From: Puniceicoccales bacterium
GTDB lineage: Bacteria; Verrucomicrobiota; Verrucomicrobiia; Opitutales; JAIRLM01
Assembly: GCA_031287845.1 (NCBI GenBank)
Contig: JAITSI010000069.1
Coordinates: 1 to 47,454 of the forward strand
Length of the DNA stretch: 47,454 bases
Reading direction: 5' to 3'
The translations under genes were made by a program, and so were the position numbers. Each line of letters begins with the position of its first letter. Position 1 is the first letter of the stretch. A model generated the notes under the pieces. It did no database searches and was not told where the DNA came from. It saw only the letters and a program-made list of their open reading frames with translations. Shown here one piece after another: positions 3,032 through 5,804 of the stretch.

Positions 3032-3349
3032 TCAGGACCCGTCAACCCTGTCCGCCGGTTGACGATGGGGTGGCGCCCCCCTGGCCCCCCGCGAAATGCC
3101 GCTGCATCGATGTCGGGGGAGGCGAAGCCGGGGGCAAAGCCCCCAAATGGGCATGGGCCCGGCCGGTCCTCGAGGCCGCGATGCTTCTGCCATCGCAGCG
3201 CGCAGGTCGCCCCGCGTAGCCTTTTCTCTATCAGGGCCGGCCCGCGGCACTGCCCGCTCCGCCGGGCAGCGCCCGTGAGCGGCCTTTCCCTCAAGAAGTC
3301 AAGTTCTTGTTTTCCAGGTGAATGTGGAATATGGTTTTACGGGTCCTGA
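3032..3349 (-). repeat. Mosaic MITE-like repeat, copy 3 (short ~315 bp variant, inverted)
   Basis: Tail terminus TCAGGACCCGTCAACCCTGTCCGCCGGTTGACG at 3032; head GGAATATGGTTTTACGGGTCCTGA ending at 3349. Internal deletion relative to the 470-bp copies. Confidence 0.85.
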
Positions 3350-3469
3350 ACCTTGGTGTTTGGTCCCTTTGTCTTGCGGAGGACCGGAAAAAGCTATAGA
3401 GGAGATCGATCTATGGAAATTATTTTACATGCAGGCGCCAAGACAACGCACCGAGTCAGAAAGGAAATG

Positions 3470-3512
3470 TTAGGTCCCCCGGATCTTCTAGGGGGGATCT
3501 GGGGACCTAACT
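3470..3512 (-). terminator. Hairpin just downstream of the kinase-like gene (possible terminator)
   Basis: GTTAGGTCCCC...GGGGACCTAAC forms an 11-bp perfect stem with an inner GATC/GATC extension, ~20 nt after the stop at 3531. The U-tract on the minus strand is weak (ACATTTCCTTTC). Confidence 0.35.
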
Positions 3513-3530
3513 CCAGGCCAATGGAATGTT

Positions 3531-5492
3531 TTAAGTGAGCCAGTCCGATTGGTTGGTTAAAACCCCTCCCTCATCCATTAATTTTCGCAAATGAGCCTGG
3601 CATTTTTCCAGTCGATCGCAGGCATTCAAGAACTCATCCGTATCCACGCGTCGGCCATTCGCGAGAAAGATCCTGGCCAAGTCCAAGGGCCTCAGGCGAA
3701 GAACCCCAATGTAAACATCTTTGCTCACGTAGTCGATGGATGCCAGGGAGAGAGCATTGTTTAACTTTTCAAATGCGCCAACGCTCCCGGCAAAGAGAGA
3801 AAGGTCATTGTCAATGGCCCTAATAGGGACGGTTTTATTTACTTTATCCACATCAAGAATTATATTCTGGGGATTACGGTCGGTTTGCCCACAGATATAA
3901 TCCATCACACTTAGCGTTGCGTGTTGGCAAAAAAGCGATGCTCGCATATCCGGCGTAAGTTCCGCAAAAAAAGCATTACGCCCCGCCCTCTTTCCCCTGT
4001 TTAATAATTCATCTTCACTCTTTCCCTGTGCAAATTCCATGTAGATGCCATTGGGATGCGCAGCCGTCCCATCTCCGGCCAGCCAACTTTCCACAATTGG
4101 ATTTTGAAAATTTTGAGCACCGGATAATTGAACAATTCTTTGCGAAATTTCGAAGGACACCCGATTGCGCGATGCAATATCCCGAATGAGTTCCTCGAGG
4201 GTCGCAGCATTCCCCACATCCGCCCCAATGCTCCGTAAGCTTCTCAAACAACCTTTTCTAATCCTTTCATGAATACCAGGCGCTTCGGCAAAGGTCACCT
4301 TTCTTGCATATGATTTTCTTCCGTTGGAAATCCCCCCACACTTCACCAAATCCACGGCCCAATGTTTGCCCGCGCCTAATATTTTATTCTCAACAACTAT
4401 GTTAGTTGGACGCTTTACCGGCATGGGCTTTGGCTCAATTGGTAGATTTGCCCCATCCAACATCCGCTGCACCACCTCCATTTCTTCCGGGGGAAGGGAA
4501 TCATAGTCACTATTTTTTTCCTCCAAATATTCCATTGCGTTCCACATGGCATTTGCCTGGGCCTGGCGGGATAGCTGTGCCGGCACGTCTTTGGAATCGG
4601 AGATTGGACGGTCCAATATGTTGCGATGGTCCTCCTTCGTTTTTTTCCACAGGGGACCGTTCCGGTCTTTGGATAGGTGTGTGAGCGTTTGCAGCGGATT
4701 GGTGTCCATGCGGGAAGTGGCGAAGGAAAAAGGATTTACATCTTTCTGCGGTGAAGGTTTTCGCCGAACAAATGAAGGCGGCTGGCGCAGATTTGGCCCC
4801 GTGGAGAAAAATACCTCAACCCGGGATGGCGGTGGCTGGGGTGCGGTCCGAACCTGCTCGATGGCGATTGCACCGGTTGCGGGTGGTCCAAGGGGCGAAG
4901 AAGAGGACGCCACCGCCTGGGAAATTTGTGTCCCAGGCGGTGGATTGGAGGGCAAAGCCGGGAGCGGACTTTGCATGAGTTCTTCCAGCGAAGGCAAAAA
5001 CGGAGACAGAGATGGAATGGGAGGCAATGGGCGTTCACTCGGTTTGAGTAGGAGCGGGTTGACGCCGCATGGATAACCCATTCCAATCGCATTGGTGGGC
5101 GGATTTTTCCCATCATTTCCGGAAAAAGATGGGGTTTCGGCGACAAAAACGTTGGGCGGGGTCGGACACGGCTTGCCCTTGTTTCCATCGTTCGGCGCAT
5201 CCTTCTTTTGGATTATAGCGTCGATGTCCGTGTGCGTACCGGGGATGTAGAGATTGTCCGGTGCGCTCGAGATGGGAAGAAAAGTCACAGCTAAGTCTAG
5301 CCACGGGGAGCCGGCGGGACAAACCGATTTTTGCGGTTCGTAAAAAAATACTCTGGCAGAAGTTCTTCCGGCTAAATTTTCACCCGGCAAGGCCCATGGT
5401 TTCACCGACGGCGGTGACCGCGCATGCGGGGGTGGCGGCCCACTTTGCAAAATGCGAGACTCAGGACCCGTAAAACCATATTCCACCTCCAC
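3531..5492 (-). CDS. Pro-rich protein with C-terminal PI3K/PI4K-like (type II PI4K-like) atypical kinase domain; candidate secreted effector
   Basis: Translation contains MDYICGQTDRNPQNIIL (catalytic-loop DRxxxN pattern, compare type II PI4K DYIIRNTDRGNDNWLI). 23 residues later comes IRAIDNDLSLF (compare IDNGLAFP / DFG position). N-terminal half is Pro/Ser-rich and low complexity. AT-richer than flanks. Start is uncertain: the maximal ORF begins at a GTG inside the repeat head (5492), and the first in-frame ATG is at 5081. Confidence 0.6.
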   Translation of the reverse strand: MEVEYGFTGPESRILQSGPPPPHARSPPSVKPWALPGENLAGRTSARVFFYEPQKSVCPAGSPWLDLAVTFLPISSAPDNLYIPGTHTDIDAIIQKKDAPNDGNKGKPCPTPPNVFVAETPSFSGNDGKNPPTNAIGMGYPCGVNPLLLKPSERPLPPIPSLSPFLPSLEELMQSPLPALPSNPPPGTQISQAVASSSSPLGPPATGAIAIEQVRTAPQPPPSRVEVFFSTGPNLRQPPSFVRRKPSPQKDVNPFSFATSRMDTNPLQTLTHLSKDRNGPLWKKTKEDHRNILDRPISDSKDVPAQLSRQAQANAMWNAMEYLEEKNSDYDSLPPEEMEVVQRMLDGANLPIEPKPMPVKRPTNIVVENKILGAGKHWAVDLVKCGGISNGRKSYARKVTFAEAPGIHERIRKGCLRSLRSIGADVGNAATLEELIRDIASRNRVSFEISQRIVQLSGAQNFQNPIVESWLAGDGTAAHPNGIYMEFAQGKSEDELLNRGKRAGRNAFFAELTPDMRASLFCQHATLSVMDYICGQTDRNPQNIILDVDKVNKTVPIRAIDNDLSLFAGSVGAFEKLNNALSLASIDYVSKDVYIGVLRLRPLDLARIFLANGRRVDTDEFLNACDRLEKCQAHLRKLMDEGGVLTNQSDWLT

Positions 5493-5804
5493 CAGGAAAA
5501 ATAACCAATATGGACCCTGTTGTGCAGGAACTTGACTTCTTGAGGGAAGGGCCTCTCACGGGCGCTGCCCGGCGGAGCGGGCAGTGCCGCGGGCCGGCCC
5601 TGATGGAGAAAGAGCCACGCGGGGCGACCTGCGCGCTGCGACAGCAGAAGCATCGCGGCCTCGAGGGCCGGCCGGGCCCTATTGGGGGCTGTGCCCCCAG
5701 CTTCGCTTCCCCCGATTATCGATGCTGCGGCACTCCGTGGGCGGGGGATTGGCAAAGGGGCGCAGCCCCACCGTCAACCGGCAGACCGGGTTTGCGGATC
5801 CTGA
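5461..5804 (+). repeat. Mosaic MITE-like repeat, copy 4 (short ~345 bp variant)
   Basis: Head TCAGGACCCGTAAAACCATATTCCACCTCC at 5461; tail CACCGTCAACCGGCAGACCGGGTTTGCGGATCCTGA ending at 5804. Inverted relative to copy 3. Confidence 0.85.

Follow-up and report, generated by a model that had tools for sequence, protein, structure and literature searches.

Composite units bounded by miniature transposable elements of the inverted-repeat kind (MITEs) have been described as TIME-COMPs (composites of TIMEs, which are miniature inverted-repeat elements that derive from Tn3) and as a 439-bp MITE pair that flanks class 1 integrons in Acinetobacter; the bounding copies in such units can be direct or inverted (PMC13367494, PMC4133298, PMC3934969). 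Mobile insertion cassettes (MICs), in which inverted repeats of the insertion sequence (IS) type surround passenger genes with no transposase, are also on record (mentioned in PMC3129680 and PMC5444012), and the definition of prokaryotic MITEs followed here is that of a review (PMC10969869). The locus examined here lies on contig JAITSI010000069.1 (assembly GCA_031287845.1) of a Puniceicoccales bacterium; the window is the whole 47,454-nt stretch of this contig that was analysed. Between the core genes rng and that for a uracil-DNA glycosylase (UDG), one AT-rich kinase-like gene is enclosed by two inverted copies, R3 and R4, of a previously undescribed, non-autonomous, MITE-like, non-coding repeat family of 232-600 nt. 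The link between these repeats and cargo genes is real; their movement as a unit is unproven. We see an even chance that R3, the gene and R4 make up a MITE-bounded, composite-transposon-like unit with a PI3/PI4-kinase-like, probably secreted effector-type passenger.

The enclosed gene is flanked by two complete repeat copies, and their limits as given in an earlier note on this DNA are exact. Terminal inverted repeats of 17 nt close each copy separately (3032-3048/3333-3349 in R3, 5461-5477/5788-5804 in R4); a repeat finder returns inverted arms at 3155-3309 and 5525-5679 (155 nt, 94% complementary), with a second pair at 3310-3362 and 5448-5500; and R4 compared with the window by BLAST aligns with 3028-3349 (354 columns, 80%). 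The two copies are 87% identical over MAFFT columns and share a 50-nt exact run, with 2.1 kb between them. Their heads (…CCATATTCCACC…) face inward and their tails outward, as had been claimed, with one correction: either end of a copy carries the end motif GGACCCGT, so that head and tail differ by the adjoining internal sequence only. GC-rich core genes do begin immediately outside: the rng stop at 3028 lies 4 nt before R3, with its TAG (3026-3028) inside a CCTAGG at the repeat edge, and the UDG stop at 5839 is ~35 nt beyond the R4 tail. The kinase-like gene has 52% GC and a GC content at third codon positions (GC3) of 0.52, compared with GC3 values of 0.73-0.90 in core genes. Pfam scans of all sizeable open reading frames (ORFs) of the window found neither a transposase nor an integrase, in agreement with the earlier note. 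As a metagenome contig, the window was put together across repeats of 80-90% identity. Independent confirmation (Logan contig L001) exists for two junctions only, UDG/R4-tail and lptB/R5-tail, and both junctions between a head and the kinase-like gene are without support from an independent assembly. L001 has a repeat tail at either end, so that short-read assembly breaks at this family.

The same bracket recurs at a second, separately assembled locus. The earlier note had proposed a search for other inverted pairs around AT-rich genes, and L028 supplies one: two kinase-like paralogues (P0124 and P0125) stand between inverted copies RL and RR, again with heads inward. Two copies of one MITE thus bound a passenger in R3/gene/R4 and in RL/P0124+P0125/RR. 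Six copies occur in the window and further ones on L010 and L028 (Table 1).

Table 1. Positions of repeat copies, genes, AT-rich islands and independent loci; coordinates refer to the window unless another contig is named.
Feature	Coordinates	Strand	Remarks
Repeat copy R1	1..345	+	Head absent, tail-half modules duplicated; tail abuts R2 head
Repeat copy R2	346..830	+	475 nt; ~130-nt insert common to R6; upstream of rng
rng (RNase E/G family), core gene	1169..3028	+	Pfam RNase_E_G E 4.5e-94; GC3 0.83; start codon uncertain
Repeat copy R3	3025..3356 (core 3032-3349)	-	nhmmer E 5e-92; head toward 3' end of kinase-like gene
AT-rich island 1	3357-5454		Kinase-like gene
Terminator-like hairpin	3465..3510	-	UUAGGUCCCC...GGGGGACCUAA, then U-rich run; between stop and R3 head
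Kinase-like gene	3531..5288	-	585 aa; GTG 5288, stop 3531-3533
Conserved leader/promoter-like region	5289..5365	-	...GGTTTGYYCCRCCGGCYCCSCGYGGCTARACT, 5-6 nt, ATG/GTG; outside R4
Repeat copy R4	5455..5815 (core 5461-5804)	+	nhmmer E 1.7e-110; head toward 5' end of kinase-like gene
UDG (family 4 type), core gene	5839..6672	-	Pfam UDG E 2.8e-34
Repeat fragment R5	8644..8725	-	Tail only, 6 nt past lptB stop TAG; E 1.5e-9
AT-rich island 2	8726 to ~10000		SocA/Panacea gene
Tentative decayed head fragment	9931..10004	- (as R5)	nhmmer E 0.65; head positions 7-82
Repeat copy R6	43495..44006	-	~500 nt; same ~130-nt insert as R2
AT-rich island 3	44007-47454		At least 2 tandem membrane PTP-like (protein-tyrosine-phosphatase-like) paralogues
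L001 (Logan, SRR14710895)	= window 5807-8655		Repeat tails at both contig ends
L010 (SRR14710895)			Two tandem kinase-like paralogues, then repeat head 36 nt past second stop
L028 (JGI 3300042620)			GC-rich comF-like gene end, 77 nt, RL, 118 nt, P0124, P0125, 15 nt, RR, third paralogue
Repeat copy RL	L028 191-789	-	Tail first; 599 nt
Repeat copy RR	L028 4767-4998	+	Short copy, 232 nt, head to tail

Complete copies range widely in length (RR 232, R3 318, R4 344, R2 ~475, R6 ~500 and RL 599 nt), so that the family falls within the length typical of MITEs (<500 bp) with one copy above 500, and truncated copies also occur. Much of this variation arises because internal modules duplicate. In R1 (window 33-297) and RL (L028 249-470), internal modules of ~93-110 nt with GGCC..GGGGGC..GCCCC hairpins are tandemly duplicated. 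Copies are 80-90% identical in DNA (80-89% in pairwise comparison within the window). Terminal inverted repeats of 17-22 nt, 77-94% complementary, are found in R2, R3, R4 and R6, with like ends in RL and RR; the consensus of the ends is (CTAG-NN-)TCAGGACCCGTAAAAC, and CTAG, or a tetranucleotide that differs from it by one base, lies 2-3 nt outside most ends, with NN and then TCAGG after it. The R1 tail and R2 head are joined through CCCTATGG (337-349); the two ends are separated by one CTAT, as though both elements had gone into one target, the second after the first. Copies are 68-72% GC (~70%), and ORFs inside them have a flat GC content over the three codon positions (0.70/0.65/0.72), from which it follows that the repeats are non-coding; in the alignment, indels between copies also break the reading frame. 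In the predicted fold, the terminal inverted repeats pair with each other and so enclose a series of GC-rich hairpins. The sense strand of R4 folds better than 100 of 100 shuffles (z -4.1; antisense z -2.1), and the tail of the repeat carries a small hairpin and then a run of 2-4 T. Compensatory change occurs in 3 of 107 predicted pairs, and covariation is uninformative with so few sequences.

Searches elsewhere returned nothing of this family. No Rfam family matches the repeats, at gathering thresholds or at E <= 1, and literature searches for the repeat sequence and for the accessions of the sample and assembly returned no match. Scans with a conserved 18-mer of the repeat gave 4 chance matches in GTDB representative genomes (CTTGACTTCTTGAGGGAA) and 17 chance matches in JGI metagenome contigs (CTTGACTTCTTGRGGGAA), none of the latter upheld by BLAST with the whole repeat; neither collection includes the source genome or its repeat, although L028 comes from JGI. 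A profile built from the copies had no match in relatives' loci L006-L009 and L029. These relatives are distant: the best matches of the UDG are proteins of metagenome-assembled genomes (MAGs) from Puniceicoccales/Opitutales with identities of at most 63%, and the host is therefore a divergent, uncultured verrucomicrobium, Opitutae/Puniceicoccales-like in kind. Proteins of the nearest relatives are 53-63% identical and gene order is not conserved; in Puniceicoccales MAGs, the neighbours of UDG are thyA on L006 and L007, and cinA with an aminotransferase gene on L008 and L009. Very large proteins with faint matches to Chlam_PMP (polymorphic membrane proteins of Chlamydia) are encoded near the UDG locus of one related Puniceicoccales MAG (L008 13377-16837).

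Repeat copies lie where the GC-rich core of the window meets AT-rich DNA. Three AT-rich islands are present; five of the window's six copies are found at their borders, and repeat ends stand at four of the five island borders visible in the window. A placement of at least four of five repeat sites on the five border gaps among ~45 intergenic gaps has p ~2e-4, and p ~0.05 if the ~12 gaps between transcription units are the only ones counted; both values are rough hypergeometric estimates of our own. The 33 kb of core from 10.1 to 43.4 kb contain no copy by BLAST or profile search and encode ispE, ispF, HU, L17, rpoA, S11, map, secY, ribosomal proteins, EF-G, S7, rpoC, rpoB, L10, L1, nusG, tRNA-Trp, EF-Tu, tRNA-Thr and ftsW/rodA. 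Siting is polarised as well. Full copies stand at four borders between core and island (R3, R4, R6 and RL), and every one of them has its head toward the AT-rich side, which has a chance of ~1/16 if orientation is random. Heads lie 15-182 nt past the stops of AT-rich genes in four of four cases (R3, R6, L010 and RR); that of R6 is 66 nt past the stop of an AT-rich PTP-like gene. Tails lie 4, 6, 35 and 96 nt past the stops of rng, lptB, UDG and ftsW/rodA, respectively, the last of these being the R6 tail. The RR tail faces a cargo gene too, so that copies also occur within paralogue arrays. No homology between islands was found beyond the heads; the repeats are therefore discrete and the islands unrelated.

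The tetranucleotide CTAG is five-fold under-represented in the window (31 sites compared with 164 expected from base composition) and stands exactly at repeat ends at three sites: 3025 (the rng stop), 8646 (the lptB stop) and 43999. Its density is 1.3/kb in islands versus 0.5/kb in the core, where many sites coincide with stop codons. On L028, RR has CTAG on both sides, and comparison of a paralogous repeat-free spacer, CCACGCCTGG, with the filled spacer, CCACGCCTAG|RR, is suggestive of CTAG/TA targeting with duplication. Targeting of CTAG or TA with duplication is a property of some DDE transposons (IS630, IS5).

Island 2 may hold a copy of a different form. The R5 tail is followed by a run of ~15 C (8697-8712) and then by AT-rich island DNA, and at the far side of the island the segment 9931-10004 resembles the R6 head (~65% identity over 69 nt); its local alignment scores 17.0, and none of 328 control segments reaches that value (mean 12.0, sd 1.4). 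R5 and this segment could tentatively be the two ends of one copy, of which the interior (8726-9930, 1.2 kb) would have been replaced by SocA cargo. The gene at 8824-9255 encodes a SocA/Panacea-domain, antitoxin-like protein. No toxin partner is recognisable beside it, and the neighbouring ORFs at 9333-9662 (+) and 9399-9782 (-) have no family matches; among the island genes, SocA alone was recognised when they were scanned for defence systems and against NCBIfam. In island 3, at least two tandem AT-rich paralogues (44066-47454, minus strand; GC3 0.54-0.55) code for proteins of the membrane whose C-terminal domain is tyrosine-phosphatase-like (motifs HCNSGAGRS and HCDSGAGRS; E 8e-6 and 8e-4 with Pfam Y_phosphatase). 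Paralogue sequence at 45612-45863 recurs with 97% identity at 47203-47454, where the contig breaks off, and a third paralogue probably follows past the contig end. The kinase-like and PTP-like genes have no homology to each other.

The kinase-like label given to the passenger by the earlier note is upheld by a Pfam match in the catalytic loop, by relatives, and by a structure model with its fold match in the PDB. The protein has a Pro/Ser-rich N-terminal part of ~270 aa and a C-terminal protein-kinase-like domain of ~350 aa. Its YARK, DIASRN, GQTDRNPQN and IDND segments fall in conserved alignment columns, and the residues expected of a kinase are present: the catalytic-loop D and N (GQTDRNPQN), the metal-binding D (AIDND) and the ATP-binding K (YARK). 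The match with Pfam PI3_PI4_kinase (PF00454) reaches 23.9-25.2 bits, below the cut-off of 27.1, and covers the catalytic-loop segment only; 7 of 13 family members match this domain at E <= 0.01. A sequence search of the PDB had no match. An alignment-based structure model (pLDDT 85.8, pTM 0.84) has PI4KII-alpha as its best fold match in the PDB (4hnd, E 1.5e-6); protein kinases and CtkA come next, and TM values for these matches are ~0.35-0.41. As modelled, the protein is of protein-kinase-like fold with an intact catalytic loop and is nearest to PI4KII-alpha. The long Pro/Ser-rich N-terminus and the foreign base composition would fit a secreted effector-type protein.

Relatives of this protein are few. 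Word-index protein searches with the single protein found only itself and with the family alignment almost nothing; an exhaustive HMMER search of 1.84 billion representative proteins found 83 distant relatives, of which 10 have E <= 1e-10. The gene family is small, fast-diverging and essentially undescribed. Cargo paralogues are 25-38% identical in protein. The closest of them, P0122-P0125 on L010 and L028, have lost the catalytic-loop D and N and the DFG-like D (e.g., GHGERRMQD / IRNEF), and these catalytic residues are kept in the window protein and in more distant relatives; from these sequences, the family seems to mix active kinases and pseudokinases.

Upstream of the gene lies a leader of ~70 nt ending in GGCTARACT, which the gene of the window shares with P0122 of L010 and with all three paralogues on L028. 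Its pattern has one match in the window and none in 100 shuffles. The leader is ~75-85% conserved in DNA although the proteins are only 25-38% identical, so these proteins diverge fast. Longer readings of the ORF begin at 5405 or 5492, and the conserved leader places the start at the GTG given in Table 1. Because the leader is outside R4, the gene has its own upstream element. Leader sites are at window 5294-5325 (minus strand), L028 889-900, 3022-3033 and 5238-5249, and L010 ~1340-1398, with a TAAACT-like hexamer 5-6 nt before the start codon of the kinase-like paralogues. The hexamer would suggest a shared promoter, possibly with leaderless mRNAs, and a regulon of effector-type genes. A promoter in the R4 head that drives the kinase-like gene was considered and rejected: the head has no consensus match, and the conserved leader is outside the repeat. 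The hairpin between the stop codon and the R3 head may act as a terminator, with a fold z of only -1.6.

How the bracket arose can be explained in several ways. As a MITE-bounded composite, the unit would depend on a transposase encoded elsewhere in the genome that acts in trans on the repeat ends; using both outer (tail) ends, such an enzyme could move the pair and its passenger together, and the 50-nt exact match of R3 and R4 would offer RecA-type inversion. The repeat family with its ends, positions and lack of coding capacity, the second bracket and the kinase-like fold are established by the data; we infer this transposition in trans, the targeting of CTAG and the movement of the whole unit. 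Copies are found just past core-gene stops, at sites with the otherwise rare CTAG and beside compositionally foreign genes, and the passenger has its own conserved leader and terminator-like hairpin. The recurrent bracket, the polarised orientation, the siting at borders and the possible cargo inside one copy speak for a functional link between repeat and cargo. The composite or cassette likeness that the earlier note proposed is borne out by the anatomy, by the recurrence on L028 and by copies at the borders of all three islands; its interpretation is partly supported. Movement as a whole unit draws no support from the data, in view of the missing duplication and of R3 and R4 not being closest to each other. 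Two other routes were rejected. Campbell-type single-crossover integration would give direct flanking copies and the observed ones are inverted, and R3 and R4, both complete with both ends, rule against a gene that entered a single copy already in place.

Several observations weigh against movement as a unit. The best candidate duplications around whole units are 4 nt for R3-R4 (AGGC, offset) and 3 nt for RL-RR, at chance level, and a scan for target-site duplications around single copies (k = 3-10, offsets 0-8) found none above chance at R2, R3, R4, R6 and RL; RR alone has CCTAG on both sides, which is expected in ~10% of cases by chance under the same scan. CTAG is palindromic and may be the outermost part of the inverted repeat, not a target. 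R4 is closer to R6 (89%, 38 kb apart) than to R3 (87%), so the bracketing copies are not mutual closest relatives. Neither the window nor L010 and L028 have a transposase or integrase gene, and no autonomous partner is known. RR stands between members of a tandem array of paralogues, the third of which comes behind the RR tail; a separate insertion into an intergenic spacer would look like this. The repeats share the GC-richness of the host and the cargo does not, and the unit therefore did not arrive whole from outside. Cargo paralogues are 25-38% identical in protein versus 80-90% DNA identity among repeats, so that the gene family was not spread by recent duplicative transposition of the repeats; the repeats are much younger than the paralogue split, although the well-conserved leaders show that these proteins diverge fast. 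GC-richness is also unlike typical prokaryotic MITEs, which are AT-rich (PMC10969869), and the repeat sample is small, with nine copies at three loci. Finally, the earlier note had held that relatives with the same gene at this locus and no repeats would count against its proposal. L029, from a relative with 53%-identical McsB, has a member of the kinase-like family between lpxD and lptB-mcsB and no repeats, but this member is a 31%-identical paralogue on the opposite side of the operon compared with the window, and it is not a clean refutation. On L029 (10001-13348), the family member is beside lptB-mcsB, and that of the window is at most 1.4 kb from mcsB on the other side of the pair; this proximity may be an old linkage or a coincidence.

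Much of this evidence suits a coincidental bracket, which we regard as quite possible, at somewhat below an even chance: R3 and R4 would be independent insertions of the same MITE-like repeat, sited beside AT-rich genes because, in a compact, GC-rich genome, only there would usable targets (CTAG/TA-containing sites at stops and in AT-rich DNA) and tolerated non-essential spacers be found, and the pair would neither have moved the gene nor move it now. That both copies are whole and carry separate sets of inverted repeats, that R3 and R4 resemble each other no more than either resembles R6, that the composite lacks a flanking duplication and that RR was inserted between tandem paralogues are all expected of separate insertions, as are the higher density of CTAG in islands (and its frequent coincidence with stop codons in the core), the much younger age of the repeats compared with the divergence of the paralogues, and a gene family free of repeats on L029. 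Coincidence fits poorly with a heads-inward bracket at two independent loci and with heads that face the AT-rich side at four of four full-copy borders, and also with a possible copy that has a cargo-replaced interior. A more far-reaching reading makes the repeat family a dedicated cargo vehicle of this symbiont-like verrucomicrobium. In such a vehicle, only tails would be transposition-competent, so that tails point outward, and effector-type genes would be seeded at CTAG stops either between two inverted copies or as interior cargo of one copy; PI-kinase-like, PTP-like and toxin-antitoxin genes of foreign composition would be its cargo. Such a MITE-based system of gene capture would have a polarity and would differ from both integrons and IS composites. 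We consider this extended reading rather unlikely.

Orientation could instead be set by function. If the repeat were mainly a structural or regulatory transcribed hairpin array (a terminator, insulator or mRNA stabiliser, cf. REP/BIME, Correia and SPRITE elements), selection would keep it at boundaries between core operons and effector genes. Tails close behind the stops of rng, lptB, UDG and ftsW/rodA, heads behind the stops of AT-rich genes in four of four cases, a GC-rich hairpin chain that folds better in the sense than in the antisense direction, and the small tail hairpin with its 2-4 T are consistent with such a role. However, a terminator scan performed no better than shuffles and found no terminator in R3 or R4, a terminator-like hairpin that belongs to the kinase-like gene already precedes R3, compensatory changes are few (among few sequences), and the truncated and tandem copies R1 and R2 resemble mobile-element debris. 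Regulation would also account for retention and not for origin, and it is compatible with a MITE origin; as the full explanation it appears improbable. The probability is lowest, and very small, for a reading in which programmed inversion of the segment would switch the kinase-like gene between states of expression. The inverted copies with their exact run could recombine, and the gene would be downstream of and co-directional with a core gene either way (UDG now, rng when inverted), but Pfam scans of the window found no recombinase gene nearby, and known invertases have short sites that are well conserved, unlike R3 and R4 with their 13% divergence. Any inversion would turn the leader round together with the gene; R3/R4 inversion is therefore not a switch.

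If such units move, they would represent chromosomal, non-resistance MITE pairs that carry effector-type genes in an uncultured bacterium of the PVC (Planctomycetes-Verrucomicrobia-Chlamydiae) group, and a compact GC-rich genome would be able to place foreign genes at core-operon ends without an integron or an on-site IS. Mobile or not, the repeat family marks candidate host-interaction genes (PI-kinase-like genes with a shared leader and membrane PTP-like paralogues), yields a testable target rule (CTAG at stop codons) and explains why short-read assemblies break at these genes.

Among known systems, the passenger itself is closest to PI3/PI4-kinase-like effectors of bacteria such as Rickettsia Risk1 (PMC7298712) and to eukaryotic PI4KII-alpha (4hnd), with which it shares a catalytic loop of the form G-x-x-D-R-x-x-x-N and, within an I-D-x-D/DFG-like motif, the metal-binding D; unlike PI3/PI4 kinases, it is below the Pfam cut-off, has a TM of only ~0.38 and belongs with several paralogues that lack catalytic residues. 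Like REP/BIME elements, the repeat holds GC-rich hairpin modules that duplicate, but it does not belong to them: it is a long element with a defined head, core and tail and with terminal inverted repeats, in place of the 20-40-nt imperfect palindromes, single or in alternating clusters, of REP (repetitive extragenic palindromic) and BIME (bacterial interspersed mosaic element) sequences, and the window contains no RAYT (REP-associated tyrosine transposase). Integron cassettes offer a likeness in that single, diverse accessory genes each have a structured repeat at their 3' end (four of four). The unit is nevertheless no integron cassette. Integrons have attC sites of ~57-141 nt, intI, attI and an array; here intI, attI and an array are absent, the repeats are 232-600 nt and dispersed at core-gene ends, with inverted ends of their own, the window encodes no integrase, and a promoter-like leader belongs to the cargo itself. 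A MIC is approached at island 2, where the R5 tail, the SocA island and the decayed head (8644-10004) would tentatively form one element with cargo between its ends, given a head fragment that is ~65% identical and marginally significant; the kinase-like gene, unlike MIC cargo, lies between two whole copies and not within one inverted-repeat pair.

The closest correspondence of the repeat is with MITEs such as Correia, RUP and QMITE (PMC10969869): it is mostly <500 bp, multicopy and intergenic, has inverted repeats of 17-22 nt (within the 4-30 bp of MITEs), lacks coding capacity and a transposase, and has size variants and predicted structured transcripts. It differs in copies of up to 600 nt, a modular hairpin interior, no demonstrable direct repeats, no known parent IS and no sequence match in the collections searched. 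AT-richness, typical of MITEs and not strictly defining, is absent from copies of 68-72% GC, whose head side adjoins AT-rich DNA. At the level of the unit, TIMEs have 38-bp Tn3-family ends that start with GGGG and a 5-bp duplication, whereas the ends here are 17-22 nt, only some of them starting with GGG(G), no 5-bp duplication was found, and unlike TIME-COMPs the R3-R4 unit has no flanking target duplication. Compared with MITE-bounded composites in general, R3 and R4 are 13% diverged and the unit has a chromosomal site where core genes have their 3' ends; its passenger is an effector-type kinase-like gene and not a resistance gene, and its mobility is putative. What R3 and R4 have in common with the TIME-COMPs and the Acinetobacter pair is the plan itself: two short, non-coding copies with inverted-repeat ends that bound a passenger, with no transposase inside.

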